A program made the position numbers and the translations under genes. From contig QPGO01000001.1 in assembly GCA_008632985.1 (NCBI GenBank), positions 652,404 through 716,403 on the forward strand: a DNA stretch of 64,000 nt, read 5' to 3'. Below, one piece after another: positions 3,785 through 36,461 of this stretch (positions are counted from its first letter, which is position 1; each line of letters begins with the position of its first letter). Below the pieces are notes generated by a model. The model did no database searches. It was not told where the DNA came from and saw nothing but the letters and a program-made list of their open reading frames with translations. This DNA comes from Psammoneis japonica. Its lineage: Eukaryota.

Positions 3785-4006
3785 TTCACCGCGCACAGTT
3801 TTGTGTGCTTCAGTTCCACGCGTTCGGCGTGATGCAGTTTGCTTTCGAGCCACAAGGCTCACAAGAATGACAACAGCAGCCCGATCACACCGACTCACAC
3901 GTCTTTCGGCTCCTGTGACGGTCTCTGAGCGGAGACTCATCTGCTGTTTAGACAGCAGCAAGGAGTTGTTGTTTGAACTCTTGCCATTTGCCTTCAATTT
4001 CTGTCA
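3732..4006 (+). repeat. 3' LTR of E1 (275 bp)
   Basis: TGACAG...CTGTCA termini; homologous to 17893-18168 and 24675-24950. Confidence 0.95.
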
Positions 4007-13198: not shown

Positions 13199-14060
13199 AT
13201 TGATGACATCTTCCAACCATTTGTTTTCTTCCATCTGCCCACGAAGAGCCCATCTCCATGAAGAAGCTCTGCAAAGGCAATGCCACTTGGCCCACCCAAA
13301 AGAAAGTGTTGGGATGGATCATCAACACACCATCAATGACGTTGCAACTTATGCCATGTTCGCGTGACTGCCTCTGACAAACCCTGCACCATGACTTTCC
13401 TTGCACTCACAAATGTGCCACCGTCTTGGACTTTCAAAAGCTCTTGGGAGAGCTCCAGTTCCCAGCCCCACCTGGAGCCCACGGCCACTTCTTGGAACAC
13501 CAAAAAGCTCTCCAACACACCACTCCTGACTCATGCATTTGTCTTGCCTCCAATGCACACACCATCTTGGATGGCTTTTGTGACCTGTGTGCACATCTGC
13601 ATGTGTGCCCAGTCAGGATGCAGGAGCTGGCCCCACTCATGCCCGCCCTCACAGGTTGTCATGTCTCAGCGGGCCATGGTGCCAGAGGATTCTTTGTCCC
13701 TGCACCTGCTGTGGCACCTTGGGCAACCACCACACTGCACCCAGACAACAGCTGCCACCAAAAGACATCCACTGCACCAATGGTTTGGCTGATGCCTTTT
13801 CTCATGATGAAAAGTTGCCGTGCTTCTTGCAACCCACAAGAACCCCAGAGGATCCATGATGGGCACCCTTGCACCATGTGGCAATCCCATCTGTGGATGC
13901 AAAGCTGGCACCCCAAGGCCAAATGGATTTCCAACTTACCCACCAAGTCCATTTCTGCAAGAAGGAGGATCCACCGCCCAACAGAGTAAAACCTGTCCCC
14001 GTCGCTGCCCTCCAATGGATCATGGCCATTTTGCATTTTCACGACACAATGTCTCATCTG
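13198..14060 (+). pseudogene. DIRS-like (tyrosine-recombinase retrotransposon) relic: RT/RNase H fragment plus start of the YR region
   Basis: PISMKKLCKGNATWPTQKKVLGWIINT, FQKLLGELQF and KKEDPPPNRVKPVPVAALQW resemble diatom DIRS proteins; multiple frameshifts. Confidence 0.65.
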
Positions 14061-14546
14061 CTTGCAGCCTGCTCCAGCCTCACAATGTCACTTGGGATGC
14101 TGAATCACCAGAATGGATGGGTTTGATCACAAGGGAGGAAGATGGAGAGGCAAACATGAATGAATTGTGCACAAAAGTGTGGCATTTCGGTGACATCCAA
14201 GCACAAAAGTTTCTGGTAGTTTTCTGGAGTTTCTCTTCAAATCTTAAGCTTCAAGTGGCATAATCTTAGGGACTAGTCAAGCATTTACTACTAGTCAAAC
14301 TATCACAAAAATCGTCCAAATACTTACAATCAACGACAAGAGGCCATCCGGAGTCGTTTTTCGAGTTTTTTTTTCTCGAGCGAGTCGTTGGAGGAGTCAG
14401 TCGAAAAAATGCCTTTCTTTTCCGCGCGGGGGCACCTGTGTGCAAGGGATAATGGCAGCAGCAGTGAGAGTAGAAATAACTAGCTGCTGCAACTAGAATA
14501 GTTTCTGCAGTGGTGGCAAGAGGCATCGCCACGTAATGGATTCACT

Positions 14547-15923
14547 CTAATACAAGCTCGAGAAAACTGATGTTTTGGATGCTTCATCAGAAGGAATAAT
14601 TACGTCATCAGGGTAGTCTCCTGTTTCTGGAATTTCAGGCGGCTCAGCTTCTGCCATCATCTGGAAACGGAAGTATCGAGTCCAGTTAATAGAAGACTTG
14701 AAAGCAAGCAGCAACGGGTCTGGGTACGCTGCGATGACGTCTTCACCTTGAGGGGTCATCGTCGCAAGATCAATCTTCGCCGCAATCTTTCCTTCTGGAC
14801 GCTCTGCTCTTGGAATTGGCACCAAGATTCTGCCTCGAAGGTTGTCCTCTGGGCGGGGGTGCATCACCGCAGCTGAGGTGAGTCGAGTCGTTTCAAGTTC
14901 GACACGGAATTTTCTCCAAAGCGCAGCACCCGCTCCACCATCAGGCCCGTTTTTGTGTTCCAAGCAAAAGGCTGATGCTTTTATCACGTGACGCAAAAGT
15001 GAGGCTGATTTTCCAATGTCACCAGTATTTGCATCTTGAATTAGGTTCCGGCTCGTCGACGTTAGACCAATCCTGCTTGCAATGGCTTGAGCGCTGGCTT
15101 TTCCGGCAACATCGTTACACATGATGATAATCTCGTATGGGCCACCATTCCAGTTCCGGGCTTGGTCAGCTTCCATCACTGGCAACACAACAACACCAGG
15201 TTTCTTATCAAACCACTCCTCCTGCTCCAAAAATGACAGCAAATTGAAGGGTGACCGATTTATCCCGGAGGCCGGCGTTACGGATGAATATCCTTCTCTG
15301 ACACTCCCACAGACTGCTTTGCAGAGAGCAAACCTGTCTTGTTGAGTCTCGGATGGCATTCCGAGCACAGCAGCAGCTGCATACATCCAAGTATAGGCTT
15401 TTTTAATTTCACCGTTTTTGGGACATAAATGCGCCTTGTCCGCAAAGTTTGCCGTCTCGTCAAACGAGCACAATCGCACAGGTGTCAAGCCGTTGACCAG
15501 CATTCGATTTGAGCTTTTGGAAATACTTGTGGACAAGTCGAGGGCTTCTCGTCTGGTGGTGTTGAAGACAGTCGCAACATTGGTATCAAGAGCCGTTCTC
15601 TGCCCAATGAAAGCCTCCCAATTTCGTGATATCGTGGAAAAGTCGGCTTCCGAAAATGTCACCCACTCACTGTCCAACAGTTCCACCATTTTGCAATATG
15701 ATGATCCGGAAGTGACTCTTATCGATTCGGTAGAGAAAGCTAATATTCCTGCCAGAAGGACTGGCTCGTACACCGTTCCAAGAGTCAAAGATTCAGCCAG
15801 TCGTTGCTGAACAGAAACCACATCTTCGTCTCCGGCTTCCAAAGCTATCAGCAATGCAGACAAATCCAAAGGCTCGTGTTCGTGTTGCTGGTTCTCTTCG
15901 TCTGTGGTGTTGAAGTTCGACAT
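14547..15923 (-). CDS. Putative HNH-type endonuclease domain protein, 458 aa, intronless
   Basis: Open 1377-bp ORF with normal Tyr and TpA content. C...DKAHLCPK...INRSPFNLLSF...EEWFDKK...YPDPLLLAFKS fits the HNH_2/CR-effector-type nuclease pattern. Confidence 0.75.
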   Translation of the reverse strand: MSNFNTTDEENQQHEHEPLDLSALLIALEAGDEDVVSVQQRLAESLTLGTVYEPVLLAGILAFSTESIRVTSGSSYCKMVELLDSEWVTFSEADFSTISRNWEAFIGQRTALDTNVATVFNTTRREALDLSTSISKSSNRMLVNGLTPVRLCSFDETANFADKAHLCPKNGEIKKAYTWMYAAAAVLGMPSETQQDRFALCKAVCGSVREGYSSVTPASGINRSPFNLLSFLEQEEWFDKKPGVVVLPVMEADQARNWNGGPYEIIIMCNDVAGKASAQAIASRIGLTSTSRNLIQDANTGDIGKSASLLRHVIKASAFCLEHKNGPDGGAGAALWRKFRVELETTRLTSAAVMHPRPEDNLRGRILVPIPRAERPEGKIAAKIDLATMTPQGEDVIAAYPDPLLLAFKSSINWTRYFRFQMMAEAEPPEIPETGDYPDDVIIPSDEASKTSVFSSLY

Positions 15924-17029
15924 TTAGTAGAGCAAAGGCTCAGCGATGTAGGCAGGATCAGGATGCCTGATTCAAGTATTGAAGCGGCCAGAAGAAACAC
16001 AAACGCCGACCATCACAGATCACAGTCGGTCGTCAGTGAGTGTTGGGAAAGTTCACTCCGTGCGTGAAAGTTCTAGGGCCCTACCGGTACGTGAGAGTTG
16101 TAAAGTAATAGCTCGAATAATTCGATTAAATATTGTTGATTTTTGCTTGTCCGTCATCCGTCATCCGCGTTCTCCGTGCTTTTTGAGTGGGAAAAAAAAG
16201 CCGTCGACCATGATGAACGTGCTGTTCCGAGGTCGTCAATATAATAGTCTCTCTTGTCCCCAATAGAAGGACACTGTGTGGCGATTCCTCCTCAAATTTT
16301 TGATTTGAGTGATGTTTCTTACATTTTGCTGACTCACACAGCACATTCGCCTGCTGCCGTTGCCGCCGACAGAGTGCGAATGCACCCAAGACCTCACCAG
16401 CAGAGGTGCATGACACCATTGACTCCTTCATCGAACGATTTAATGAAGGAGTGTTGAATGGTTTCATCCCTGGAAATTCGTTCTGGCTTGTGACACAAGC
16501 CAGAACTTTTGTGTCACGATGCAAAGAGCAAGAGACGCACTTTCCCCGATGCCCTCCATTTTTCCAAGTTCTTAAAAATCGACGATGAATCATTTCTCAA
16601 AGCATGTGGGCAGCAGACCATGAAAAGCATTGAAGCCAAACACAGTCAACTAAAGACTGGTGACATTCATGGTGCAACTGTGTGGTCTCAATCACTTCAA
16701 AGCTGCTGCAGTGTCAAAGTCATCATGTGAGACTGCTGACGAAGAGAATCGGGTTCCTTTTGACAACGTAGAAGTCGGAAGTGCATGCAGGTCATCAAAC
16801 GATTCACACATTGATTTCTCTGCTCATTGTTCTTCTGGTGAATGTGCTGATGTGGGGCAACATGAGGACTCGAGAGTCAGCACTCGAGTCTCGGATGCAC
16901 GACAGCCAGGGAGCATGATGCCACCAATGAAAACGAGGTGAAGCTAGCTTCAGATGACAGAAGAATTGGTTTTGCATCCCCGCTCTATTTTATGACTTGA
17001 TTGTCATCCAACAGGTTGGACAAACAGGT

Positions 17030-17620: not shown

Positions 17621-17892
17621 AGAAATGGCTGACAAACGATCAAAAACTTTGTCTCGATTTCCACACAATGACAACTCCATTTCTCACCAAGCCAAGGGTC
17701 TCACCTGACACTGCTCCTCCCAAAAGCAATGTGATTGTCTTCAATTGACAAAAACGATGGAGAACAGCTCAAACAAGGCCGAGTGTGAGTCGGCGCTGGC
17801 TTCAAGCTGCACATGCATGCTCGGGAAAAAGTCTGTCTGTGCCTGCTGGCTCAAAATTAATTCAAGGTTTCGCGCGACAGTCTGGCAGGCTT

Positions 17893-18168
17893 TGACAGGA
17901 TTTGAACAGGATTTGGGTGCGCGCGAAGTGTCGCGCGCTGTTTAGTTTACCGCGCACAGTTTTGTGTGCTTTGGTTCCGCACGTTCACGCGCGATGCAGT
18001 TTGCTTTCGAGCCACAAGGCTCACAAGGACAACAACAGCAGCCCGATTGTGCCAACTCACACGTCTTTCGGCTCCTGCAACGGTCTCTGAGCGGAGACTC
18101 ATCTGCCATTTAGACAGCAGTGAGGAGTTGTTGTTTGAATTCTTGCCATTTGCCTTCAATTTCTGTCA
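17893..18168 (+). repeat. 5' LTR of E2
   Basis: Matches the 3' LTR apart from ~18 substitutions. Confidence 0.96.
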
Positions 18169-18707
18169 GATTGACAGTCTTGCTCATTGTCAACCCATTG
18201 AGCAACCGCCATTGTCGTCGTTGATTTACCAACGATGCCATTTCAATCCCACGTGGACCTCCGCACATGTTCTACATACATCGGCAAGTCTGCGCGCATT
18301 CAATGCCAGGGCATCGGCAGGAAGTTAACGTCACCGTCAAGTCTCCTTGCCGCTGGACATCTGGATTGATTGTGCTGCCTTTGATCGCTGAAGACATGCA
18401 TTCAACGGTCACATCCAAGTCCATCCTTGATCAACATCCCTTGACACACCTGTTCCTCGGTTGACGGTCAAGAACCCTGCACATTCAAGGATCTCAGTCG
18501 CTGAAGACATGCACGCATGCACACATCTTCACGGCCAAGAACCTTTGCCCACTCTTCGGACTGCGGTTTTGCTGCCACTCTGCGAGCACACCGAGTCCAT
18601 TGCACCTGATCTACCCCGGACCACTGGTGCTCTACAGTTCCACCAGGTCCACGAGGACGACTGTGAGAGCAAGTGGCCGTGATTGCAGCCTGCGTTGGGG
18701 CGAGGGT

Positions 18708-19097
18708 GACGCGTTCCAGCCCCAGGTGGGACTCCGTGTGACATTGGGCCCGTAGAATTCTACGTGCGAGCTCCGTAGTACGAGAATTTAATTAATGGAC
18801 ACATTTGTCTTCAACATCAAATAAACGGCCAAGTTTGTGGTGCAATTATGCCTCTTACCACTCGACGTTTTTGCAACTTCGCCTGCCCTACGCGATTCTT
18901 AAGACATTGTAGAATCGCGCTGTAACAAAAAATGTCAAAAGTTGTTGGACGGATCACTCAATAAGTGCACCGTAAAATGACACAAAATGTCAAAAAAATC
19001 ACGTAGAAATCTACGTGCGCGACATACGACGAGACTCAAAAAACTGTCGATGTCACAGTTCAGCAGTACGAGGTCCCACCTAGACCTGGAACGCGTC
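18708..19097 (+). mobile_element. GAC-family MITE, subfamily A, young, inserted in the E2 5' UTR
   Basis: 390 bp; TIR GACGCGTTCCAG-N-AGGTGGGAC; TSD GGGT. The empty site is visible in the related element E3 near 29840-29860. Confidence 0.95.
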
Positions 19098-19501
19098 GGG
19101 TGCTTTCCCGCGTTTGTTCGTTCGTCCACAGCGCCTAACGCCTACGTCAACTGGCCAGCCTGATCGGGAAATCCAACCGACATAAAAACAAGAACGGTTC
19201 GGGGGTCTTGTCCACCTCTGGTCAGCTCACCTGCAGGGGTTTACAACCCGCCACTCGCTCGCAAGCAACCCAAAGCGCCGCTGGCTGCGGGTTCGGACGT
19301 GCCGGCACAACTCCACGGACCGGACAGGAAGTTCAGCACTTGACAACGAACGGGACAGCAAAGCCCGGCGACTTCTGATTTTAAGACAGTTCAAGATTTC
19401 AAGTCAAGTCTGTTTCAAGTCAAGTCCATTCTCACCCAAGTTTCGAGTCTGCCTTCGCTTCCCAACCAGAATTGATTGTCCTGACACCACTTTTGTCCAC
19501 C

Positions 19502-22500
19502 ATGGTTCTCACTCGTCAGCAACAAACCGATGGTTTCGAGCACGTTGTTGGAACCGTGCTTGCCCAAGGTGCTGGGAGTCCTCTTCGTTTGGCTTTGGCC
19601 CAAGACGGCACGGACTCGCATCAGGAACCATTCACGTTCATGCCGTCCCAAATCGACTCGCTTGAGTGCGACAACGGCACTGATGTGATCCCTTTGCCCC
19701 GTGGTTATAAGAACATGTTAGCAGCACCAGTTGGTCTGCACATTGTCAAAGCACACAAAGGTCTTGACGTTGCCAACGACTCCTCTTTGTTCGCGCATGA
19801 CGAGTTCCTTGCCCACCGCCTCAGCCCCGACTGCATGTCTTCTGTGTCCATCGGCAGCTCACCCCTTGCACCTCCGCATGTCACCAACCCGACCAAGGCA
19901 CGCGACCCGGTGCGGGACTTCAAGCGAGGCATCAAGCATGATCCAACCGCTTTCACGGCTCTCAAATCCGACAAGCAGTGGCACACTTGGCACACCTCAC
20001 TTGTGGCACAAGCCCGTGCCCAAGACGTCGAGTGCATTCTAGACTCGTCGTACAAACCGACCAGCCCCGAAGACAAACTGCTCTTTGCTGAACAGCAAAA
20101 GCACATGTTCGCCGTCTTCGAACGCATCCTTCTCACCGACAAGGGCAAGGCTCTCATTCGCGAAAATGTGGGGTCTTCTGACGCACAGACCGTCTGCCGC
20201 GCCTTGTCTGAGCACGCGCTTGCCTCCACCCGCGCATCCATCGAGTCCTCCACCCTGCTCACGTGCCTCACCACCGCAAGTCTTGGTGATGGTGCTTGGA
20301 AAGGTCCGACCCACGGGTTCATCCTTCATTGGCAAGATCAGTTGCGCAAGTGCGAGGCACTCATCCCGGCCAGTGACCACTTCTCTGAAGGACAGAAGCG
20401 CGTGATGCTCGAGAATGCCGTGCACCCTGTCGAGGAACTCCGTGCTGTCAAGAACCAAGCTGATCAGCATCGCACGCAAAGTGGCAAGAGCCTCACACAC
20501 GATCAATGCTGTGGCTTGCTCCTCTCCGCGGCAGCTCAGCACGACAGTGCGTTTCAACCCAAGACGACACCTCGAGCTCCCCGACGTGCCACATGCGCAC
20601 ACGACGTCCACTCCGAGGAACCGTCCGACAATGTGTTCTACGACATTGACAGCGACATTGACGTCCTTCAGGCCAATGCTGCCTGCACCCGCGGTCCCAG
20701 CCTCACCGGTGACCAATGGAGACGTCTCCCTCCCGACCACCAACGGATCTGGGATTCGTTGCCCGATTCCTCCAAGGCGATCATCCTTGAGCATTCTCGC
20801 CCGCCTCCCCGCAACCCGCGAGCCAGCAACTGCCATGAGTCTGTTGCGGCCAACCTTCACGACCAACGCCTTGGGAGTGACGGTGATGTCAACTTGTCCA
20901 ACACGACTCCTGCTGACTCTGGTGACTCCGCTCCAAATGTGGGTGCCACTTCGGACAATCCCATCCTGGCGCACCTCACCAAGCGCAAGCCACTGCCACC
21001 CGGTGATCTGCAATGTCTGTTGTCTCCTAACCAAGCCCCCAATGCCAGTCGACCGGGGCCATCCGCCGCTCCCTCTACCCCGCCAGCTTCTGCAGATGAC
21101 ACAGAACTTAACGGCCGCACTTGCCGCCGCGTTGACAACCACAATGTCATTTGCTCTGCCTCTGCTCATCGCTCCACCCGCACTGGTGCTCCAGTCGATC
21201 GTGGGGCCAACGGCGGCATTGCTGGCGACGACGTTCGCGTCATTGCACGCACCTCTCGCCAAGTCGATGTTCAGGGCATTGACGATCATCAATTGGTGGA
21301 CATTCCTGTTGTCACCGCTGGTGCCGTCATTGAGACCCAGCGTGGTCCCGTCATCGCCATCCTCCATCAGTGCGCATGCACGGGCAAGGGCAAGACCATC
21401 CATTCCTGCGGCCAGCTCGAATGGCACAAACAGGATGTCAACGATCGCTCTGTCAAGGTGCCCAACGGCTTGCAGCGCATTGCCACTCCTGATGGCTATG
21501 TCATCCCCATTGACATCAAGGCCGGCCTGCCTTGTGTTGCCATGCGACCTTACACTGACACCGAATGGGACACCCTGCCCCATGTCATCCTCACCGGTGA
21601 TGACACATGGGACCCTTCCGTCCTCGATCACTCTGTCACTGACGACGACCAGTGGTGTGACGCGATCTCTGACCCACAGGACGATCCCACTGCCAACCCA
21701 TTTGACGAATGCGGCAACTGCCGTCATCGTGTCGTTGTCAACAAGACCATCATGTCCGCTTCCTTGTCTGCCGATCACGCGTCCGCCCTCGATGATCACC
21801 TCATTCTGAACGACGACGTGTTCTGCGAGTGTCATCTACATGCGATTGACCCCAAGGGCGATGACGTTCCGCCTCCGGAGCGCACTGTACAGCCCAAGGA
21901 CCCCCCCTTCGAGTCTCTTCGGCCTCACTTTGGCTTCCCACCTGCCGATGCGGTCCGTCGCACTTTTGACTGCACCACGCAGTGCGCCCGCATGCCCGCC
22001 GGCACACACCTTGGGAAGGCCTGCAAATCACCCAACCCCGCCCTTAATGTGCACCGCCGCAACGAGCCTGTCGCCACTGACACCGTTTGTGCCGACACCC
22101 CGGCCGTCGACTCTGGCTGCACCAGCGCCCAACTGTTTGTTGGCACCGAGTCCACCGTCACTGACGTCTGCGGCACTGAGACGGACAAAGAGTTTGTCAA
22201 CACACTCGAGGATCAGATCCATGAACGTGGTGCCCCATCCAAACTCATTAGCGACCGTGCTCAAGTTGAGATCAGCAACAAAGTGCTTGGGATCCTACGC
22301 GCCCTCTTCATCTCCAGCTGGCAAAGTGAGCCTCACCAGCAACACCAAAACTTTGCCGAGCGTCGACACCAGACCGTGAAGCGCATGGCGAACACTGTCA
22401 TGGATCGTTTTGGTTCGCCCGCCCACACATGGCTGCTGGCGCTCATGTGCGTGTGCTTCACACTCAACCACACAGCGTCCCCACGTCTCCACTGGCGCAC

Positions 22501-24727
22501 GCCCCTCGAGACTCTCACTGGCTCCACCCCGGACATCAGCCCATTGCTTCGCTTTCACTGGTGGGAACCCGTGTGCTTCCACCTCGATGACTCCGATTGG
22601 CCGTCCGAATCCCGTGAGTTGCGTGGACGCTTCGTTGGCATTGCTGAGCACGTCGGCCACCAGATGACCTTCAAGATTCTATCTGACGACGAAGACACTG
22701 CCATTTGGAAATTTCGACGCATCGTGTCACACGAAGGACCTCTGAAGCCTCACGACCCAACCTGGAAAGGCTCAAGCTACAACATCATGCTTGAATGGGA
22801 AAGTGGGGAGATCACGTCCGAGCCTCTTGCCATCATCGCCAAGGACGACCCCGTCACCTGTGCCATCTACGCACGAGAGAACGGACTCCTTGACACGGAT
22901 GGCTGGAAGCGGTTCCGCACCATCGCGAGGCGCCAAAAGAAGCCATTTCGCATGGCCAACCAAGCCAAGCTTCGCTCCTTCTGCACTGCACCTCGCCACA
23001 AGCACGGATGCGAAGTTCCCCGGAACTGCAAACACGCCATGTCACTGGACGAACGCAACGGCAACCGCAAGTGGGGAGACGCAACTAATCTCGAGATGGA
23101 CCAACTCGACGAATACGAAGTCTTCCATGACTGCGGGCCCTTCAAGTCTTCCACTCCTCCTGCGGGACACAAGAAGATCCGAGTGCACCTGGTGTGCGAC
23201 GTGAAACACGACGGTCGCCACAAGGCACGACTCGTAGCCGACGGGCACCTCACGGACGTGCCTGTCGACAGTGTCCACTCCGGAGCAGTCTCCCTCCGTG
23301 GCCTTCGGCTGATGATTTTCCTGGCCGAACTCAACAAGTTGGAGACATGGGCCACCAACATTGGACCCGAATTTGGCAAACTCGAAGGACACATCCTTGT
23401 CATCCACAAGGCACTGCATGGACTGCGCAGCTCCGGTCTCCGCTGGCATGAGCGCTTCGCCGACTGCCTGCGAGCTGAAGGCTTCTTCCCCTGCCACGCC
23501 GAACCCGACATTTGGATGCGCAGGAACGGCGACCACTGTGAACACATTGCCGTTTATGTGGATGACCTCGCCATTGCCATGAAGGACCCTCAATCTTTCG
23601 TCGACACTCTCACGGAAAAGCACAAGTTCAAGCTCAAGGGTGCGGGACCCATTGAGTTCCATCTGGGTTGCGACTTTTCCCGGGATCCCGACGGAACCTT
23701 GTGCCTGTCTCCGCCCAAGTACATCGAGCGCATGGTCGACAGCTGCGCCCGACTGTTTGGGGAGAAACCCACCACCAATGCCCTGTCACCTCTGGAGAAG
23801 GGTGACCACCCCGAACTGGACACTTCCAAACTGCTGGGACCCGATGGCATTCACAAGCTCCAGTCTCTTGTTGGTTCACTCCAATGGGCAGTGTCCCTTG
23901 GTCGAATTGACATTGCCACGGCCGTCATGTCACTCTCTAGCTTCCGAGCTGCGCCCCGTCAAGGCCACTTGGATCGTGCCAAACGCGTCTGTGGGCACCT
24001 CTCCAAGATGCGACACGGTGCTCTCCGCGTTCGCACGGAAGAGCCCGACCACTCGGATCTCCCTGCTCCGGCCTGTGAATGGATGCATTCCGTGTGTGGC
24101 GAAGCAGAAGAGATGATCCCGAAGGACGCTCCACCGCCCCTTGGCAAGTTCGTCACTGCCACCCACTGCGTCGATGCAAACTTGCACCATTGCATGCTCA
24201 CCGGACGCTCTGTCATGGGAATGCTCCACTTCCTCAACAAATTCCAGGCTGATTGGTTCTCTGAGAAGCAAGCCACCGTGGAGACTGTGACCTGCGGGTC
24301 TGAATTTGTTGCCGCAAGGACTTGTGTTGAGCAGATTGTCGACCTGCGCATCACCCTGCGCTGCCTTGGCATCCCGATCCGTAATGTTAGTTACATGTTC
24401 GGTGACAACAAGTCAGTTGTAGACAGTGCCACCATCCCGCACTCCAAGTTACACAAGCGACACACCGCACTGTCGTTCCACCGTGTGCGTGAGGCAATTG
24501 CCTCTGGTCACCTTGAGTTCCACTTCATCGAAGGCTCCTGCAACCCTGCTGACATTCTCAGCAAGCATTGGGGTCACTCCCAAATCTGGGACCTTCTCCG
24601 CCCCCTCATGTTCTGGAACTTCATTCCATCCGAAGTCGAATCTGTTTCCGTGACTCCTCAAGCAAACTGGGGAGTGACAGGATTTGAACAGGATTTGGGT
24701 GAGCGCGAAGCATTGCGCGCTGTTTAG
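19502..24727 (+). pseudogene. gag-pol polyprotein frame of E2: open but almost certainly non-functional
   Basis: Protease (VDRGANGG), integrase, RT (YVDD) and RNase H are present. In-frame deletions relative to E1: 393 bp near 22687 and 51 bp near 23364, the latter removing the D-I-G-N-A-Y-L RT motif. Only ~11 Tyr in ~1740 aa. Confidence 0.92.
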
Positions 24728-24950
24728 TTTGCCGCGCACAGTTTTGTGTGCTTTAGTTCCGCACGTTCACGCGCGATGTAGTTTGCTTTCGAGCCACAAG
24801 GCTCACAAGGATGATGACAGCAGCCCGATTGTGCCGACTTACACGTCTTTCGGCTCCTGTGACGGTCTCTGAGCGGAGACTCATCTGCCATTTAGACAGC
24901 AGTGAGGAGTCATCGTTTGAATTCTTGCCATTTGCCTTCAATTTCTGTCA
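24675..24950 (+). repeat. 3' LTR of E2
   Basis: Preceded by aactggggag; followed by TSD GGCTT. Confidence 0.96.
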
Positions 24951-26226
24951 GGCTTGGGATGGCCATCGCAAACAGGGAGACATGTAGAATCTGCACCACA
25001 TCCTGCACATTCAAGCAAGACATTGTGGGGCAACATGCAGAACATGCACCAAAACCTGCACAGCTCAACATTTTGACAGAAATGGGTGATGTCTGGCCAT
25101 CACGTCTGCGTGCACAGCCAAAATTCAGTGCCAGGCTTCACGTGTCACTCAAATCCAACACGCAGCCTCTGGCACCAATTCTGTGTCCCCAAAATTGTGG
25201 CAGGCAGGCAGCACTTCAGCCCACATTTTTTGCAGCTGGTTGAAGAACAGACAATGTGCTGGGCCTGCGGCTGTGATGTGCCTCTTTCACGGGGTGAAAT
25301 CAGGGACATGCAAATGTGCTCAGACGGGATGTCCCATGTGGCACAAACCCAGTGGCGGCTTTGCGGCATGATTTTATTTGTTTGGCCAATTTAGCCACAC
25401 AAATGCTCAAAGTAACTTCAACATGTAAATCCCCGTGATTGGCCAAAAGCAAAAAAAAGGCAGAAAGCATTCCAGCGCTGCAACACAACAAAATGCGCGA
25501 GTCCATCTTGTGTCCAAAGACAGTGCTGTGTCCCAATCAAGGAAACCATTGCTGATCATCACCATGCATGCAACTGTGGTTACAAGGAATGTTCTGCTGT
25601 TGGATTTCAGCTTCAGATGCATCTCACAAGTGCAGAAGGGAACAAAGTGCAGCACGATGTTTGGGCGGATGCACCATGCCAGTTCTCGTTCGACCCCAAG
25701 AAAAGCACTGTCAACAAATGGTTGCTTGTTCTTTCATCTGCACACTGCTTGCCTGGTGTCCAAAGAAGGTCACCTTGCGTCAGAAGTCACACAGCATTGC
25801 CAAACATCACTTCCCATGGGCGCTTCTTGAGAGCTGCGGTGCGCACAACACAAGCGCAGCCGCACCAAGTTGTTGATGCCTTGTGTGGCAAAACGGACAG
25901 TGGACAAAGATGATGGGAGGGCAACACAAGGATCATGGAGGAATGCAATGCAGTGAGGGCAACCATCAACAGAGCAGGAAAAACATTGGACGCAGAAATG
26001 CTTGTGCTGTTTCATCATGCTCTTGAGCCAGAAGGCACCAACAAGGGCGACACATGAATTGTGCAAGCTCCTCTTGTGTCTGTTGGAGAAGCCAGCAAGC
26101 ACCTTTTCTCTGGCAAGGAAGCTGATGCAGCACGCAGGAATCATGCCAACAAGCATGCTGCTGCAATGCAAACTCCTGTTGTTGATTCAAAGAAGCATTG
26201 CGCTGCAATTGGTGAACATGATGGCA

Positions 26227-26622
26227 GACGGGTTCCAGTCCTAGGTGGGACTTTTTGTGACATTGGGCCCGTAGAATTCTACGTGCGAGCTCCGTAGTAA
26301 AATTATTAAGCAATGGATATATGAATGATCGCCAACAGAAAAAGAGGCAATTTTGCGAACGTATCTCCTCCTCCACACTTGAAGTACATTCTTTACAGTA
26401 TGCCCGGGTACATTCTTTAGACATTAAAGAATATACCCAGCGCATTTTTATTGACATAAGTGCAGATAACAGAAAGCCTTTGGCTTCGCAAAACAGGCAG
26501 TGTGGAACAATTTTTTATAATAGAACACGTAGAAATGTACGTGTGAAACATACGACGGGTGATAAAAAATAATTATGTCACAGTTCAGTAGTACGAGGTC
26601 CCACCTAGAGCTGGAACACGTC
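26227..26622 (+). mobile_element. GAC-family MITE, subfamily B, youngest-looking (TpA-rich)
   Basis: 396 bp; TIRs gacgggttccagtcctaggtgggac and gtcccacctagagctggaacacgtc; TSD GGCA. Confidence 0.95.
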
Positions 26623-26629
26623 GGCACTG

Positions 26630-27092
26630 CTGGTGGCTGCATGGATTGTGATGGCACTGCTGGCAGCAGCATTGACACCACAAGTTCCGACGGAATGCCG
26701 GCCATCACAGCAGCCATCATGACACCTGTTGTGCCCTCTTCTCCTGCAGCACCTGCCACAACACCAATGGAAAAATCAGGTGGTGCTGCTGTTGGTGGCA
26801 TTGATTGTGACAGTGCTGCTGGCAGTGCTGTTGATGCCCCAAGTTCCAAAGGAAAGATGTCCATCACAGCAGCAGCAATGACACCTGTTGTGCCCTTTTC
26901 CATTGCACCCGCCACAACACCAATGGAAAAATCAGATGGTGCTGCTGGTGGTGGCATCAATTGTGATGGCACTGCCAGCAGCGCTGTTGACGCCCCAAGT
27001 TTTGACAGAAAGCCGTCCATCATGGCAGCCATCATGGCACCCGTTGTGCCCTCTTCCATTGCACCAGCCATCACACCAATGGAAAAAGCAGA
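26630..27092 (+). repeat. 156-bp (52-codon) tandem repeat x3 in the N-terminal part of the transposase-like frame
   Basis: acaccaatggaaaaa at 26761, 26917 and 27073. Confidence 0.9.
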
Positions 27093-28327: not shown

Positions 28328-30554
28328 TGACAGAAAATGAAAATGGCTGGGGTGGAAGAAAACAATGACTCCTTGCTGCTGTCTAAATGACAGATGAGTC
28401 TCCATGCAGAGACCGTCACAGGAGCCAAAAGACTGGCGTCGTGATGTCGGCGCAACTGTTGTTGTTCTTTTGAGCTGTGTGGCTCAAAAGCAAACTACAT
28501 CGTGCATCACGTGTGGAGCTAAGAGCGCACATGATCATGTGTGACAAACCAAAATCTTGTTCAAATCCTGTCACTCCCCAGTTTGCTTGAGGGGTCAACA
28601 GCAACAGATTCAAGGTCAGATTGGTTGAAAGCCTTGGGAACAAAGCTCCAAAACATCAAAGGACAAAGGAGGTTCCAGACTTGAGAGTGACCCCAATGCT
28701 TGCTGAGGATGTCAGCTGGGTTGCGGGAGCCTTCGATGGAATGAATTTTGAGGAAACCAGAGGCAATCGCCTCACGCACATGATTGAATGAGAGGGCGGT
28801 GTGTCGCTTGTGTAACTTGGAGTGCGGAGCAGCAGTGCTGTCCACAACCGACTTGTTGTCCCTGAACATGCAACATGTTTCACAAATGGGGATGCCAAGG
28901 TGACGTGAAGTGATGCACAGACTGTCAATGGGTGCCTCTGTGAGGTGTCCATCAGCAACAAGTCATGTCTTGTGCCGTCCATCATGTTTGACATTGTAGA
29001 TGAGATGCACCCCAATCTTCTTGTGTCCTGCTTGGGCACCAGAGTCCTTGCAGTGTCCACAGTCATAGAGAATCTTGCACTCAAACAGCTGAGTCATCTC
29101 AAGGTCTGTTGCATCTCCCCACTTGAGGTTGCCATTGCACTCATCGAGGGCCAAGGCATGCTTGTAGCATGGAGTGCAACTTGGCTTGATTGGCCATGTG
29201 GAACAGTTTCTTCTGATGCAGAGCCATCTTGCAGAGCCATCTCCATCCTTTGGTTTCAAGGAGGCCATGCTCACATGAACAGATGGCGCAGGTGATGGGA
29301 TTGTCCTTGGCAACATCCAGTTGCGTTGGAGCAAAAGTGAAGAGATCCTGGTGCAAATTGGTTCTGTCAATGTTGAGGGTGGAGTGCAATGGACTGTCTG
29401 TGGCTTGATTCAGAACAGAGCCTAGAATGTGCTTGAGGCCATTGATTTGTTGCTGCCTGGTGAGAACCATGTTGCAACTGGGTGGGTGCAGGGATTGGCC
29501 AGAGTCGGAGGGTGAGCTTGAAACAACAACTTGAAACTTGACTTGAAACTTGACTTGAAGTCTTGAGTTATCTTGCAAATCAGAAGCTGCCGGGTTGTGC
29601 TGTCCCATTTGCAGTTAAATGCCAAGCTTCCTGTCTGATCCACAGTGTTGTGCTGGCACGTCCAAACCCACAGCTGGCAACGCTTTGGGTTGCCTGAGAG
29701 CGGAGCAACAGGTTAAAAACCCCTGCTGACAAGCTGGCCAGAGGTGGACAAGACCTCCGCACCCTTCTTGTTTTATGTTGGTTGGATGACCCGATCAGGC
29801 CAGCCAAATTTAGCACTGTGGAGGGACAAACAAATGTGGGAAATGCACCCTCGCCCCAATGCAGGCTGTGATCACAAACTGCTTCCTCTCACAGTTGTCC
29901 TCGTGGACCTTGCAGGACTGTAGAAGACCAGCAATCTGGTGCAGACAGGAGGCAGTAGACTTGGTGTGTGTGTGTGCAAGGCCAGAGTCAGACGATTGTG
30001 TCATGTGTGTGTGAACGAATGCGAGCGGATGGATTGGTCTGTCTGCCAACCAGGGCAGAATCTGCCATGGGGAATCCAGAATCTCGGATGTCTGAGAGTT
30101 CGGGAATTTCTGACCAAACAAATGTCTGTTGAACAAATGCATCCAACAATGGGAGGCATTGGATGAATCCAAACACGCAGATTTAATCCAGTGTCCAGCA
30201 GCAAAGAAGGCAGGCACACATCTCCACTGCTGCTGGTGCGCGTCGTCAAAAATTTCCCAACGACGATGATGAATGCTCGACGGATGAAAATGAGCAAGAC
30301 TGTCAATCTGACAGAAAATGAAGATGACTGGGGTGGAAGAAAACAACAACTCCTTGCTGCTGTCTAAATGGCAGATGAGTCTCCGTGCAGAGACCATTGC
30401 AGGAGCTGAAAGACTGGTGTCATGGTGTCAGTGCTGCTGTTGTTGTTCTTGTGAGCCATGTGGCTTGAAAGCCAACTACATCGCACGTCAGGCACAGAAC
30501 TAAGAGCACACACAATCATGTGTGACAAACTAAAATCTTGTTCAAATCCTGTCA
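28328..30554 (-). mobile_element. Non-autonomous, internally deleted copia element E3 (sister family of E1/E2)
   Basis: 246-bp LTRs at 28328-28573 and 30309-30554; TSD GTGAG. The gag start is fused to an RT N-terminal piece (~29315), which is fused to the RNase H end (~28920). Confidence 0.93.
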
Positions 30555-31604: not shown

Positions 31605-32008
31605 CATGAGTTCCAGTCCCAGGTGGAACTCCGCGTGACATTGGGCCCACAGAATTCTACGTGCGAGCTCCACAGCAAATTTGTGCTGCAATGAAAATGT
31701 GAGTGATCGCCAACAGAAAAAGAGGCAATTTTACGAACGCATCTCCTCCTTCACACTTGGAGCACATCATTGACAATTTGCCCGGGTGTGTTCTTCAGAC
31801 ATTAAAGAGCATGCCCAGCAAATTTTTGTTCTCACAAATGTTGAAAATGGAAAGCCTTTGGCTTCACAAAACAGGGAGTGTGAAACAATTTTGTGTGGAG
31901 TGCAACATGCAGAAATGTGTGTGCGCGACATGCGACGCAATCCAAAAAACTGTTGATGTCACAGAAGAGTGCAGCAGTGCGAGGTCCCACCTGGAGCTGG
32001 AGCGCGTC
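31605..32008 (+). mobile_element. GAC-family MITE, subfamily B, older
   Basis: TSD CTGA at 31601-31604 and 32009-32012; homologous to 26227-26622 with most TpA converted. Confidence 0.88.
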
Positions 32009-33053
32009 CTGAATCTGCCCAACGGACTGAAGTTTGTGGCAGCACTTCACTCTGACCAGTCAGACATTGAGCCCCTCTTTTCTGTGACGTGCCGCATGGG
32101 AGGTGACACCACAAGCAAATGCTGCACTGCCGTTTCATCCCTCAACACCATCGCCACTGCCTGAGCCAAGAAAGGAAACAAGTGCCACCCAGCTGACAAC
32201 ATGTCTCAAAAAGAAAAACAAAAAGAAGACTCCAACCCAGTGGCAGGTGCCAATTTGTACAATGTCAGCAAAAAGTGGACTCTTTGCATCGGCCAAAGGG
32301 GGGGCTCATGGTGCAGAGCGGATGAGCGTTGTTCCATGTGAGATGGCTTAAATTTCAAGTGGTTTCACAGTGCCCATTGCAGTGCAACTTTTTAGTTTAG
32401 ATGAAAAGCATGCCAGGAGAAAAAGCTTTGCCAATTGTCATGTTTAGAAAATCGACAACGTTCTTGGGTTCTTCCCAAATCAACTCCAGCGGCAGACCAA
32501 AGAGTCCATCGGGTTGCATCTTCTGCACTTGCATCAGCTCTTCTCAGCTGTGCGACTTTGTTCTTTGTCAATGCTGATCAAGAACGGAGATGCATTGATG
32601 CAGCACCTTTTGAAAGTTGCACAAAACAGAAAATGGTGCTCTTGATTGACATGAAGAAATCCAGGTGCGATTGCTGAAGCTTGATCGAATGAAAGGAACC
32701 GGTTGCGAATTGAGAATTCGCAAAAAGCGAAGTTCCATTTTGTGACATTGGCACTTCAACTAAAAAAATCGAAGCCAACAGCAGCCATGAGACCCAGGCC
32801 TCAAGCAACTTCAAACTGGCATGGCCGGTGTGCTCCGGGTGAGCGCACAGACCATCCCCGTGGTGACAACACGGAGAAATTGTCAAAAACCCGCCGGAGC
32901 CGATGACGACATTGACGCGGCAGATGAGGTGTCCAAACAATCATCGTTTTTAGCCCCATTGCCACAGCAGGTTTGTCACACTGTCTTTCATTTGGGGTTG
33001 TAAAGGGACCATCATAGAAGGGTGGAGAGTTGAGTTTTGTGCGCAAACATGCC

Positions 33054-33443
33054 GACGCGTTCCAGCCCTGGGTGGGACTCCGTGTGACATTGGGCCCGTA
33101 GAATTCTACGTGCGAGCTCCGTAGTACGAGAATTTAATTAATGGACATGTTTGTCTTCAACATCAAATAAACGGCCAAGTTTGTGGTACAATTATGCCTC
33201 TTACCACTCGACGTTTTTGCAACTTCGCCTGCCCTACGCGATTCTTATGACATTGTAGAATCGCGCTGTAACAAAAAATGTCAAAAGTTGTTGGACGGAT
33301 CGCTCAATAAGTGTACCGTAAAATGACACAAAATATCGAAAAAATCACGTAGAAATCTACGTGCGCGACATACGACGAGACTCAAAAAACTATCGATGTC
33401 ACAGTTCAGCAGTGCGAGGTCCCACCTAGACCTGGAACGCGTC
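33054..33443 (+). mobile_element. GAC-family MITE, subfamily A, young
   Basis: 390 bp, nearly identical to 18708-19097; TSD TGCC. Confidence 0.96.
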
Positions 33444-34758
33444 TGCCGTTGCACCCGTTCATGACGCCATGTTGCATGCAGACGACGCATCAACTCACCA
33501 TTTGCCGGACATTTGGCACCCACTGAGTTGAAGTCCGAGTTTGTAAAAAGGCAAGAAAATTGAAAATCAAAATGGTGCTGTCAATGTGTCCAAGGCTCAC
33601 CACTTGTTGTCTCGCTCAACTTTGTTGCCGCTGCAGCCAGCTCTTGTTGTCTTTCCTGGCACGAGCACATCGACGAATCCAATGTCGTCATCACATCGTC
33701 AAACCCATTTGATCAATGGCATTGACCAGACGAGCATTTTTGAAGACTTTGACAAAGCAAGTGCAACGCATTCAGCCAAGTGTTCTTCAATGGAAGAGAG
33801 TCGGGCGGATGAGAGTGTGAAAATGAAGAATGAAGTTGGCGCACGGTTCAAGAAAAAAAACAGTCAAACATGGTTGACAAAATGTTCTGATGCTGTTGTT
33901 CTGTGGAATGACAAACGTTGGTGAACAGAGCTCCTCCCTGGCTTGTGTCTGCTCTGGATTGATCGCAAAGACACAAATGTCAAATGTGAGAACAGAAGTG
34001 ACTGTGTTGCTTGTGTTGAGTTTTCACGGATTACTTGGCCTGTCCATGGCATGAAAAAGGTCAAACACAGTTGTCACGAGGCCAGCCATGGATTAGAGAA
34101 TGGAATGTGGCCATGAAACAGGTCTTGTGTTGATGTCATCATCCAATCTCGGTGTCAAGAAAGGGTCAATTTCCCTTCACGCACGGTGAGTCACGTGTCT
34201 TGAATCCCGCACGACCCACTCGACTCGAATTTTTGGAAGAATTGGATGGACTTTGACCCCCGCTCTAGAGCCACAAAATGCACAAGACATGGGCATTGTC
34301 GGTCTCACACTCTTTAAACCGATGTCTTGCGAGAATGCAGTGGGCATGTGTTGTTCATGGCATCTGGCATTTCAAAATAGAACTGGCTTTTTGTGGAGCA
34401 CCTTTACAACACGGGCAAGTGCGAGAGTCAACATTCAGTGATTGGCAAGTGACTGACGTCCACCCCCATTCTAGGCCCCCAAAAGTTTGCTGAACTTCGC
34501 ATCTGTGTGCTGTCAGTCAATCGAGGTGGAGCTGGGACGGAAAGCAGCGAATGGCAAACAGCAAACAGGCGCAATCTGTCACTCCAATGAAACGCGACAA
34601 CGCCACTGCGCTGTGCCACACCATGCTGTGCAGCAATGGCTCTGTGACGCTTGTCACTGCATCAATGACAACACCCCCAAACACAAACCGGATTTCTCAT
34701 ACTTGGGGAATCACCAAAAACCGAAAAAGTCCGAAAAAGTGTTTTCACATCCCTGCTT

Positions 34759-35075
34759 GTGCACACGAACCACCTGGTGGTCCGTGTGCATTTTTGGGTG
34801 CACACGAACCACCTGGTGGTTCGTGTGCACCCTGCGCAAAATGCTGCGTAGATTTGCACCGAATTAAATCTGAATGCCTACATCTGCAGCAGGCTCTACG
34901 TGAAAACGCACTCGAAACAGTGTCCACCGAGCCGGCAGTCATGTGCCGGAACGTCGTGAAAAGTATTTTATGTCTGAGAAAGAGTTCGTCAGGGCCGGCG
35001 AACAACACCCCTCTACGATGCGGCTGGTATAAAATGTACGTAAATGCACAGGAACCAGCATGTGGTTCGTGTGCA
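34759..35075. repeat. Three copies of a ~31-37-bp palindrome (TGCACACGAACCACC-T-GGTGGTTCGTGTGCA)
   Basis: 34759-34790 (one internal mismatch), 34796-34832 (perfect 18-bp arms), 35045-35075 (degenerate). Confidence 0.9.
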
Positions 35076-35444
35076 AATTAGAGCTCGTGAAAAATAAGCA
35101 GGGATATAGGAGGTATTGCTGTGTCGTTCCTAATCTATGTAGAAATTTATCTATCGCCGAAAAAGCTCATTATTGTATATGATATGAATGTGTATAATTG
35201 GATAATTTGATTATTTATAAACCTAAATCCATTTCAATGTTTTGTATATAACCCAAAATACAATTCAATGCTTTACTATCATTTGCTTTTTCGGCGAAAA
35301 AGTAATGTATAAATTAAAATACGTATAAAAACACTAATGGATTTTATGAAAACACTTTTCTGACTTCCACTTACAGTATGGTCGAGAGTGATTCCCGCAA
35401 GTACGAGAAATCCACGTAAACCAAGAGTACACAACTTCACGACG

Positions 35445-36461
35445 ATGACACCGACACCAGCATTAGGAGTGGAAACAAAAGATCTGGAAGTGATGGAAAC
35501 AAAGATAGAAGAAGCACAGAGGATAATAAACGACATCACGGAACGTTTGACCGAAAGCTCCAGAGAGTTGACTAAAATCGAGACGCAGCTGTTGTCGGAG
35601 CCAACAACAGACTCAATCCAATATCAGGTGCTTTCCAACCAGTATGAGAGAACAAATAAAGCGCACTCAATCCTTCTGGAAGAGAAGAAAGGCGCCGTTG
35701 CCCATTTTAATCACCTTCAAAGCCGATCTGACCTGCTCGCTGACAAACAGACCTTGAATATGATGGTCGCTCAGAGCCCTACAAGTAGACACACCCACGA
35801 TGCAATAGCTTCCGTCGATCCGGGCGCCGTTACTATTTGGAGCTTCCGTCACCCGGAGCCTGAGCTGTCTAAGAAAGACAGAAGAAAACTCCGCAGAACG
35901 ACAGCAACGCACTACAAAGTGTACAAGAAAGCCGGAAACATGGCGCGGTGTCAGCTGGCTAAAGAATGGGGAAATTCTCAGCAAGTCACGACTAGCCACC
36001 TGTTGGGGCATTCTACAAAACATCATATAAGGAAAATCTTTGAAATCGAGGATATCAACGATAAGCGAAACCTCCTCATGCTCTCTAAGGGTGTGGAAAA
36101 AGCTTTCGAGAGGGGTCAAATCTATTTTGAGGGAGAAGACGACCGTACTTTTATCATGAAGATTCTGGATAATGACGTGAGAGAGAACCCCATCTTTGAT
36201 GGTTCCATGTTGACGATTGGTAGTCTAGAGGGGAAAGCGTTGTTCATTCCGAGGGATGTCGACCCACCGTTCAAGCGAATTCTCAGTCATCACGCCCAGG
36301 ATGCCTTCAAAAGAGCGGTGGAATTGGGTTTAGTGACAAAATCAGCAACACCTCCTAGAGAGTATGGATCGCCTCTCAAAAACAATATGCTGGTGATCAC
36401 TCAAGCCACAACAGACAGCAAGATGAACGATGACGCCGACGCACTTGATCTCCAAGCATGA
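35445..36461 (+). CDS. Coiled-coil plus HNH endonuclease (HNH_2 / Crinkler-type) protein; start codon uncertain
   Basis: N-terminal heptad-like region; RCQL...VTTSHLL...INDKRNLLMLSKGVEKAFERGQIYF...PPFKRILSHHA; normal TpA. Confidence 0.8.
   Translation: MTPTPALGVETKDLEVMETKIEEAQRIINDITERLTESSRELTKIETQLLSEPTTDSIQYQVLSNQYERTNKAHSILLEEKKGAVAHFNHLQSRSDLLADKQTLNMMVAQSPTSRHTHDAIASVDPGAVTIWSFRHPEPELSKKDRRKLRRTTATHYKVYKKAGNMARCQLAKEWGNSQQVTTSHLLGHSTKHHIRKIFEIEDINDKRNLLMLSKGVEKAFERGQIYFEGEDDRTFIMKILDNDVRENPIFDGSMLTIGSLEGKALFIPRDVDPPFKRILSHHAQDAFKRAVELGLVTKSATPPREYGSPLKNNMLVITQATTDSKMNDDADALDLQA

Follow-up and report, generated by a model that had tools for sequence, protein, structure and literature searches.

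Dinucleotide-specific transitions in repeated DNA are known from the decay of methylated CpG and from the repeat-induced point mutation (RIP) of fungi, clustered transitions in copies of retroelements from ADAR hyper-editing and APOBEC deaminases, and a repeat-preferring modification of thymine, 5-hydroxymethyluracil (5hmU) or base J, from dinoflagellates and kinetoplastids. These are the described systems closest to a locus that we report here from the diatom Psammoneis japonica. The locus is a single insertion of a Ty1/copia-type long terminal repeat (LTR) retrotransposon, termed copy A of its family, at positions 17893-24950 of a stretch of 64,000 nucleotides (GenBank assembly GCA_008632985.1, contig QPGO01000001.1, positions 652,404 to 716,403 of the forward strand), the whole of which is called the window below. 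In the reading that is probably correct, this element inserted once and was thereafter altered in the chromosome by A:T to G:C transitions that are confined to the dinucleotide TpA and directed at repeats. Such decay of TpA to TpG or CpA in inserted repeats is apparently a previously undescribed process: open-access full text yielded no description of it in diatoms or elsewhere, only fungal RIP, whose polarity is opposite, and the editing of RNA or cDNA; papers behind a subscription, or the one describing the genome of the species, may contain an account. PMC9258296 and PMC11804724 proved to be off the subject or gave no information on mutation spectra.

The decay of methylated CpG resembles the changes at this locus in its target, a palindromic pyrimidine-purine (Y-R) dinucleotide that is hit on either strand, in its products TG and CA, in its occurrence in repeated or silenced DNA and in the inflated divergence that it produces between LTRs. 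It differs in that the substrate here is TA, the change runs from A:T to G:C and not from G:C to A:T, and the pace is about 20 times faster. Since the change is from A:T to G:C, cytosine deamination, as in CpG decay and RIP, cannot be the underlying chemistry. An ancestral CG is found here for a minor class of sites, but not for the majority, which derive from TA. RIP, which duplicated sequence sets off in the sexual cycle, likewise leaves dinucleotide-specific transitions in repeats, ruined transposon genes and a shifted base composition. However, in the available portions of its descriptions, RIP converts CpA/TpG to TpA and yields AT-rich repeats, whereas at this locus TpA becomes CpA or TpG and the repeats are GC-richer; moreover, the loss of TA creates no new stop codons here, and the host is a diatom. 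Instead of the raised TpA expected from CpA to TpA changes, the reverse is found, with an observed to expected ratio (O/E) of TA of 0.20 in the element and of 0.01-0.15 in old repeats. ADAR hyper-editing and APOBEC share with the locus the clustering of transitions in retroelement copies, and adenosine deaminases favor a 5' U or T neighbor. In contrast to the situation observed here, these enzymes act on RNA or cDNA, on one strand, and their changes reach both LTRs; at this locus both strands are affected, the LTRs differ, and repeats that are not retroelements are altered as well. Neither a one-strand polarity nor a set of changes common to the two LTRs was seen.

The thymine modifications form a different kind of parallel. 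In the available part of one report, 5hmU is enriched on repeats in two dinoflagellates, where it lies on transposable elements and is linked to silencing (PMC11572971), and older reports of a preference of 5hmU for TA/TC are cited in the accessible text of another (PMC11071213). The 5hmU and base J systems would thus resemble the process described here in being a repeat-preferring mark of thymine with, in the older work, a preference for TA/TC; they differ in that the portions of these sources that were available report no mutational consequence of the mark. No record of a 5hmU- or base J-type modification of thymine in diatoms was found in the open-access literature.

Both LTRs of an insertion derive from a single cDNA and are identical at the start. 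That the interval represents one integration event follows from the perfect 5-bp duplication GGCTT at both of its ends. Both LTRs begin and end with TG..CA, and they align without gaps over 276 nt with an identity of 93.5%, differing at 13 sites that comprise 18 nt. All 18 differing nucleotides fall within Y-R dinucleotides, which cover 144 of the 276 nt, and none of the 132 non-YR positions differs; the chance of finding at least 12 of the 13 sites in Y-R dinucleotides is 0.0027, even though transitions are not yet required in this calculation. A preliminary description of the stretch had counted four TA-variant sites, three CG-variant sites, five sites with TG against CA and one transversion, and realignment reproduced this tally exactly. 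Expressed as states of the LTR pair, there are 17 CG/CG, three CG-variant, two TA/TA, four TA-variant and five TG/CA dinucleotides. Terminal-repeat pairs of environmental relatives served as a control: among 14 such pairs, 21 of the 46 differing nucleotides are non-YR and TA is stable (216 TA/TA, 6 TA-variant and 2 TG/CA), although in 8 of the 14 the two repeats are 100% identical, perhaps as overlaps of the assembly, which leaves six informative pairs. The reading of the three CG-variant sites as hits on CpG stands for two of them, which are losses. The third, at 24914, is a gain of CpG from TG, as the outgroup LTRs and the contigs of the family show, T being found there in nearly all family contigs and in the other LTRs.

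As judged from sequence comparison, the direction of the process is settled by three independent polarizations, which agree that TA was lost and not gained. A gain of TA was looked for and not found. Comparison with the internally deleted relative E3, used as an outgroup, shows that three of the four TA-variant sites (alignment columns 56, 81 and 106) were originally TA, the fourth being ambiguous. The polyprotein of the element, P0001, is also informative, because a change of the tyrosine codons TAY to TGY is a change of TA to TG and one of TAY to CAY is a change of TA to CA, so that replacement of Tyr by Cys or His mirrors the loss of TA. P0001 contains 0.62% Tyr, 5.3% His and 3.0% Cys; Tyr makes up 3.0-5.0% (median 3.8%) of its 120 listed relatives. 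We aligned it with 45 of these 120, namely the first 45 by identifier among those longer than 1700 amino acids (aa), and regarded Tyr as conserved where it occupies at least 80% of a column. P0001 deviates in 30 of the 36 conserved-Tyr columns (17 Cys, 10 His and 3 other residues), and each of the other residue classes is altered in no more than 23% of its conserved columns. A tblastn search of all 73 metagenome loci together with the two copies in the window, copy A and copy B, a truncated member of the same family, gave a matching picture. At the conserved Tyr positions copy A has 6 Tyr, 17 Cys (TGY) and 8 His (CAY) of 34, and copy B has 3 Tyr, 13 Cys and 10 His of 28; 72 of the 73 metagenome relatives have at most two Cys or His there. 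The other conserved residues are retained at 0.89-0.92 in both copies, which is within the range of the relatives. Furthermore, in the 12 columns where one copy has Cys and the other His, the relative has Tyr in nine and Arg (CGN) in none. The presence of Tyr, and never of Arg, in these columns identifies the TG/CA sites of the element as TA struck independently on opposite strands.

The mutations postdate integration and were acquired in chromosomal DNA, at Y-R dinucleotides on both strands, as the preliminary description had proposed: the element lies within one target duplication, both polarities of change occur and the LTRs differ. Its claim that neither RNA editing nor reverse transcriptase error is responsible is likewise borne out. 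Since both LTRs are copied from one cDNA, changes made in RNA or during reverse transcription would be common to both, yet nine TA-derived sites differ between them. Changes of A to G and of T to C are found together in each LTR, and on the coding strand the two polarities are similar in number (17 Cys and 8-10 His). A processive single-strand editor, which would produce runs of outcomes on one strand, was considered and rejected, as runs tests on the order of TG and CA outcomes revealed no clustering (z = -0.88 over 31 sites at which copy A was compared with copy B; z = 0.07 over 35 Tyr sites).

Comparison of the copies indicates that the decay is progressive and proceeds in place: a younger repeat of 389 bp nested in copy A keeps 20 TA inside the TA-poor element, and copy B is more decayed than copy A. 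TA is lost in copy B where copy A keeps it at 13 sites, versus four in the opposite sense, and polarized losses of CpG number 62 in copy B versus 27 in copy A, those of copy B including four Arg to stop changes. By its greater loss of TA and CpG, as read from the sequences, copy B is the older of the two. Differences between A and B fall outside Y-R dinucleotides in 60 of 228 cases. The LTR pair of E3 provides a second verified insertion, with 27 of its 37 differing nucleotides in Y-R/Y-R contexts, nine TG/CA sites and one CpG left in both LTRs. Three to four of these TG/CA sites are derived from CpG, as they align with CG in the A family, which is what one would expect where CpG decay, too, has almost run its course. 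Another candidate LTR pair, that of E2 (26227-26624 and 31610-32008), probably represents two insertions of different age and was left out of the rates; its 24 TA-variant sites are almost all on one side and 43 of its 80 differences are non-YR.

Rates were derived by arithmetic on the state counts of the LTR pair and are rough. TA is kept in both LTRs at two sites and in one LTR at four, and five sites show TG against CA. Double hits in the same direction, which are invisible, are expected to add about five more TA sites. This amounts to about 16 ancestral TA, with 8 of 32 LTR-copies surviving, i.e. about 75% lost per LTR, in agreement with the loss of 74-82% at conserved Tyr codons. For CpG, 17 are intact in both LTRs and three are variable, with 2 of 40 lost, or about 5%. 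On a log scale within the same LTRs, TpA therefore decays about 20 times faster than CpG, and the earlier statement that it decays about as fast as CpG has to be abandoned. The expected number of double hits on opposite strands is about 4.5 for TA and about 0.03 for CpG; five were seen. Together with the Cys/His columns of the coding region, these rates support the earlier view that the sites with TG against CA were hit on opposite strands in the two LTRs; by the same evidence, the five LTR sites most likely derive from TA and not from CG. The absence of any change at the 132 x 2 other positions places the rate at TpA at least some two orders of magnitude over background. The survival of TA also depends on context. 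In copies A and B with their LTRs, TA is kept at 15 of 24 TTAG/CTAA sites, 13 of 34 CTAC/GTAG sites and 5 of 51 ATAA/ATAC/ATAG/ATAT sites, i.e. in about 10% of ATAN contexts, and both of the TA retained in both LTRs sit in TTTAG. This bias of the surviving TA may reflect a sequence preference of the agent that acts on TpA. The preliminary description was right in that LTR dating overestimates the age of the element: the Kimura two-parameter (K2P) distance over all LTR sites is 0.0696, with no difference at the 132 non-YR sites. An age obtained by standard LTR dating would be at least an order of magnitude too high.

The same signature extends over much of the window, whose O/E values are 0.18 for TA, 1.56 for CA, 1.62 for TG and 0.54 for CG. 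The CG O/E of copy A is 0.93; in the oldest stretch, at 38-48 kb, the O/E of TA is 0.01-0.05 and that of CG 0.10-0.21. Bins of 500 bp contain 0-5 TA in this repeat sea versus 10-47 in a series of TA-normal islands, and the number of Y-R dinucleotides remains near 120 per bin throughout. Given this constant total, TA and CG have turned into TG and CA and nothing else. The islands consist of open reading frames (ORFs) of normal composition with 0.5-1.5 kb of non-coding flank, or of young insertions, and their edges are sharp, e.g. with 10 TA in 37501-38000 and none in 38001-38500. An unrelated repeat family of 389 bp, which may be a miniature inverted-repeat transposable element or a solo LTR, has copies at 18709-19097, 33054-33443, 48065-48449, 26227-26624 and 31610-32008; young copies have 33, 23 and 20 TA and old ones three each, with a Y-R sum of 100-103. 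The GC content is 0.53-0.59 in the 2-kb bins of the element versus 0.42-0.51 over most of the window. T|A at codon boundaries can mostly be removed silently, and its O/E is 0.39, 0.86 and 0.47 in three host ORFs versus 0.11 in the element. Genes retain T|A, which they could hardly do against a rate two orders of magnitude over background, and genic DNA therefore appears not to be exposed. We conclude that the process is confined to repeated or silenced DNA, where CpG is lost as well. Among the steps that the data establish, this contrast of repeats with genes is less secure than the direction, the post-integration timing, the strand symmetry and the TpA specificity of the changes.

A tandem array at 4590-5850 (family D2), with a period of about 50 bp, has units that by eye toggle between TA, TG and CA at the same positions; examples of such units are TTTACAAG, TTTGCAAG, TTCACAAG and TTCATGAG. 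Thus, satellite DNA also appears to be affected. Long spurious ORFs are seen on both strands in decayed repeats, such as 20039-21835 on the minus strand (598 aa, antisense to the polyprotein) and 20406-21809 on the plus strand. On both strands of the 10 kb at 38-48 kb, TAA occurs 29 times, TAG five times and TGA 515 times.

Four public sequencing runs, from one sample and one study, contain the locus, and no RNA run was listed among them. When the window was compared with 17,248 contigs, 388 of 435 differing places (89%) were transitions, and these were symmetric (G>A 96, C>T 109, A>G 98 and T>C 85) and not one-directional toward TA. In three further runs, contigs agree with parts of the element apart from 2-11 letters per 180-430 nt, and a contig across the junction of flank and LTR shows no difference from the window. 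Outside this genome, the signature was detected in partial form in a single locus of the 73, L068, a metagenome contig of 2561 bp with 63% aa identity. Its O/E is 0.33 for TA and 0.74 for CG, and at 20 conserved Tyr positions it has 11 Tyr, two Cys and five His, seven of the 20 being changed to Cys or His. This suggests that the process is present in at least one other organism or population.

Several alternative explanations were weighed against decay of TpA in the chromosome. One of these holds that the TG/CA sites were CpG at insertion and decayed by deamination of methyl-cytosine, with the TA-variants arising by secondary C to T change. CpG decay does operate, as is apparent from the two CpG lost in this LTR pair, from the TG/CA sites of the E3 pair that align with CG in the A family and from the low CG O/E of old repeat DNA. 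Nevertheless, an origin from CpG only is scarcely tenable and for this element already contradicted, given that 17 CpG remain intact against two lost, that five double hits were seen where about 0.03 were expected, that the Cys-versus-His columns show Tyr in 9 of 12 and Arg in none, conserved Tyr having become Cys or His, that three of the four TA-variant sites had TA originally, and that the CG O/E of the element is still 0.93 with TA at 0.20. Alternatively, an ADAR-like enzyme acting on RNA, or a deaminase acting on cDNA, might have edited the element before integration, with reverse transcription fixing the changes. The TpA context recalls the 5'-U preference of adenosine deaminases, and outcomes at the Tyr sites are shared by copies A and B beyond chance, so that some changes were inherited via transposition. 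Against such editing stand the nine TA-derived sites that differ between LTRs which RNA changes would have entered alike, the similar numbers of both polarities on the coding strand without strand runs, the same decay in the non-autonomous 389-bp repeat and in the repeat sea, and a nested younger insertion that is less decayed than its host element; we regard it as very unlikely. Marginally less probable still is ectopic gene conversion, in which patches of LTR were copied from other family members. The family is indeed very abundant (word depth of 45,000-210,000 versus about 66), and copy B, too, carries the variant states of several sites. Yet the differences are single dinucleotides scattered over the LTR, the sequence between neighboring ones being unchanged; non-YR variants, which do separate A from B (60 of 228), were not brought in with them (0 of 132); and conversion could only move variation that the TpA process had made.

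The remaining two alternatives concern the genome as a whole and the data themselves. A general, genome-wide mutation bias would involve no targeting, the islands keeping TA through selection or recent arrival. It accords with the TA-poverty of all old non-genic DNA in the window and with the partial TA deficit of the host ORFs, whose O/E is 0.37-0.47 in several codon positions. The islands, however, reach 0.5-1.5 kb past the ORFs into non-coding DNA and have sharp edges, and at the near-silent T|A boundaries the genes have 0.39-0.86 against 0.11 in the element; a bias of this kind is therefore unlikely, though it merits more attention than editing before integration. A technical artefact, with modified TpA bases in repeats misread in sequencing or polishing, could be suspected from the fact that the best run contains only 0.59 of the sampled words and that at some places the letter of the window is carried by no contig. 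A systematic error would give the same call in identical LTR contexts and not TG against CA; in addition, differences between window and contigs are symmetric (G>A and C>T, 96 + 109, versus A>G and T>C, 98 + 85), contigs of three further runs match the element, the junction contig matches without difference, and L068 shows the same pattern of Tyr to Cys or His. An artefact is accordingly barely credible.

Certain observations weigh against the proposal of repeat-directed TpA decay after insertion. The sequencing runs all come from one sample and may be the very source of the assembly, and the view that repeats are targeted is drawn from one 64-kb window and three ORFs, one of which has proven homologues. 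The five TG/CA sites of the LTRs are not polarized directly, as neither TA nor CG is present in any of the five LTRs compared. TA loss is heterogeneous, and the TA classes (two, four and five) fit no single rate. Of the Tyr sites hit in A as well as in B, 19 have the same outcome in the two copies and nine differ; roughly a third of the loss seems to predate the A/B split, and hence this insertion, and to have been inherited from a decaying source copy. Such a source copy seems to have kept transposing, or to have been duplicated, while it was losing TA. With regard to chemistry, nothing in the data identifies an enzyme or a modified base, and the accessible text of PMC11071213 reports no sequence preference for 5hmU in Breviolum.

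Under the proposal of TpA decay, the Ty1/copia element would have inserted once into the diatom chromosome with both LTRs identical. Thereafter, site by site and on either strand independently, TA would have become TG or CA, until about three quarters of the TA of each LTR, and a similar share in the coding region, were lost; meanwhile about 5% of CpG would have decayed to TG or CA, with no change elsewhere. A difference of TG against CA between the LTRs would then represent one ancestral TA struck in both LTRs on opposite strands. The same process would act on unrelated repeats and bring old repeat DNA to almost zero TA and low CG; genes and their flanks would keep normal TA, the process being directed at, or confined to, repeated or silenced DNA. 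TpA is self-complementary, and T to C and A to G changes are therefore indistinguishable from sequence. As to the chemistry, our best guess by analogy, and the most likely option, would be an enzyme-made modification of a base at TpA in silenced DNA that miscodes at replication. The bases 5hmU and 5-formyluracil mispair with G; a search of the literature gave no statement on mispairing of 5-formyluracil. Oxidation of thymine to 5-hydroxymethyl- or 5-formyluracil, pairing with G, is on this analogy a tentative candidate, and conversion of adenine to hypoxanthine by a deaminase that prefers a 5' T a more doubtful one; modification of thymine is favored because a repeat-enriched, silencing-linked thymine mark exists in dinoflagellates. 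More broadly, it is possible, although we stop short of leaning toward it, that a repeat-directed DNA mutator converts TpA to TpG or CpA, with an enzyme modifying T or A at TpA in silenced chromatin, as a chemical mirror of fungal RIP and a third form of dinucleotide decay.

The coordinates of the element, of its variant sites and of other features of the window are collected in the table.

Table. Features of copy A and of the surrounding window (positions within the window; variant sites are given in 5' LTR numbering)
Feature	Position	Strand	Remark
Target-site duplication GGCTT, left copy	17888-17892	+	same letters as 24951-24955
5' LTR, 276 bp, TGACAG...CTGTCA	17893-18168	+	repeat family D5
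LTR variant, transversion C/A, 1 site	17920		at C of a CpG
LTR variants, TG versus CA, 5 sites	17929-30, 18030-31, 18033-34, 18078-79, 18129-30		
LTR variants, TA versus TG/CA, 4 sites	17949, 17973, 17997, 18058		
LTR variants, CG versus TG/CA, 3 sites	17932, 18054, 18132		
Nested younger repeat, 389 bp, with terminal inverted repeats of ~12 nt	18709-19097	+	20 TA retained; ends read
gag-pol frame P0001, open, 1780 codons	19385-24727	+	Tyr codons mostly now Cys/His
Copia-type reverse transcriptase (Pfam RVT_2), P0001 residues 1327-1453	about 23363-23743	+	Pfam
Purine-rich tract (...AAACTGGGGAG), polypurine-tract-like by position only	24662-24674	+	directly upstream of 3' LTR
3' LTR, 276 bp	24675-24950	+	pairs with 17893-18168
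Target-site duplication GGCTT, right copy	24951-24955	+	same letters as 17888-17892
Copy B, same family, 3' part and LTR at 3732-4006, truncated by window edge	1-4006	+	
E3, internally deleted relative, 73-78% identical	28328-30554	-	family D13; second LTR pair and outgroup
Host gene P0122, 458 aa	14547-15923	-	inside TA-normal island 14001-16500
TA-normal islands	14001-16500, 18501-19500, 26001-27000, 33001-33500, 35001-38000, 52001-55000, 57501-59000		500-bp bins

The assignment of the element to the Ty1/copia type is supported by a match of P0001 to PF07727 (RVT_2) with E = 1.1e-15 and 58.4 bits (cut-off 31.6), a domain that is present in all 120 of its listed relatives. No Pfam integrase family was found at E <= 1 in P0001 or in its intact relative P0002, and PDB sequence searches gave no integrase match; a D..D..E-like stretch upstream of the reverse transcriptase was read by eye. 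The same purine-rich tract as at 24662-24674 is also seen ahead of the LTR in copy B. The family is present in great abundance, with a summed word depth of 45,000-210,000 over the element versus about 66 for single flank contigs. The closest relatives of the polyprotein lie on contigs of ~7 kb from aquatic metagenomes, and the nearest named atlas cluster is a diatom. A search with a spliced-leader motif of dinoflagellates gave no match, and a dinoflagellate host, considered at first, was rejected in favor of a diatom. A search of metagenome contigs with the LTR pattern gave no match, and there is no Rfam match within the window. Within each LTR, the segments at positions 137-144 and 235-242 look like complementary arms, the pattern of the 3' LTR mirroring that of the 5' LTR by construction. 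As a compensatory stem this was rejected and treated as chance (roughly 1 in 4), copy B being non-compensatory and the minimum-energy fold pairing only part of the arms in the 5' LTR and none of them in the 3' LTR.

The nested 389-bp repeat is flanked by its own target duplication, GGGTG, at 18704-18708 and 19098-19102. Joints of 18703 to 19098 are found in contigs of all four public runs, and many members of the family must therefore be without the nested insert. The E3 insertion, with LTRs at 28328-28573 and 30309-30554, has the target duplication GTGAG on both sides. In run X1, two contigs (summed depth 95.6) join 17885-17892 straight to 24949-24956 through seven shared letters, CAGGCTT. 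A flank-to-flank joint with one CAGGCTT has the form expected of an empty pre-insertion site; it may stem from an empty allele present in the same sample or from a paralogue of the flanking repeat. The flank bins have depths of 850 and 155 versus about 66 for single contigs, and no paralogue of the flanks of the element was found within the window. If the empty site is allelic, the insertion would be very recent and the loss of TA burst-like.

Of the genes outside the element, P0122 has 20 homologues, one of them named, from the diatom Epithemia clementina (48% identity). Pfam searches with 12 long ORFs outside the element gave a single match, to HNH_2 (35364-36461, E = 5.5e-7). The ORF in question is on the plus strand, encodes 365 aa, is of normal composition and lies in the island 35001-38000, in which the bin 35001-35500 has 47 TA, the maximum of the window; it is either a host gene or a very recent arrival.

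No known pathway of DNA modification or deamination accounts for the repeat-confined, TpA-specific A:T to G:C process described here, which predicts a modified base or an editor enzyme. The process has direct consequences for dating, in that a K2P of 0.07 would be read as millions of years for a very young insertion whose non-YR sites are unchanged; the insertion-age landscapes of this genome, and perhaps of related diatoms, would be inflated unless TA- and CG-derived sites are masked. It also bears on annotation. Loss of TA cannot create a stop codon, as TAA to TGA merely exchanges one stop for another, and the frame of 1780 codons therefore stays open despite the replacement of most conserved Tyr. 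Thus, an open frame is no sign of an active copy, and decayed copies would be annotated as intact genes; spurious ORFs in several frames of decayed repeats, where TAA and TAG are nearly gone, are likewise a trap for gene callers. For repeat DNA, the process would provide a new route to gain GC and to shed signals that contain TA. If a repeat-directed mutator of TpA is indeed at work, it would erase Tyr codons and TATA-like signals from transposons before any ordinary substitution, and it would be the first A:T to G:C genome-defence mutagenesis described in a eukaryote, with a natural TpA-specific DNA base editor behind it.

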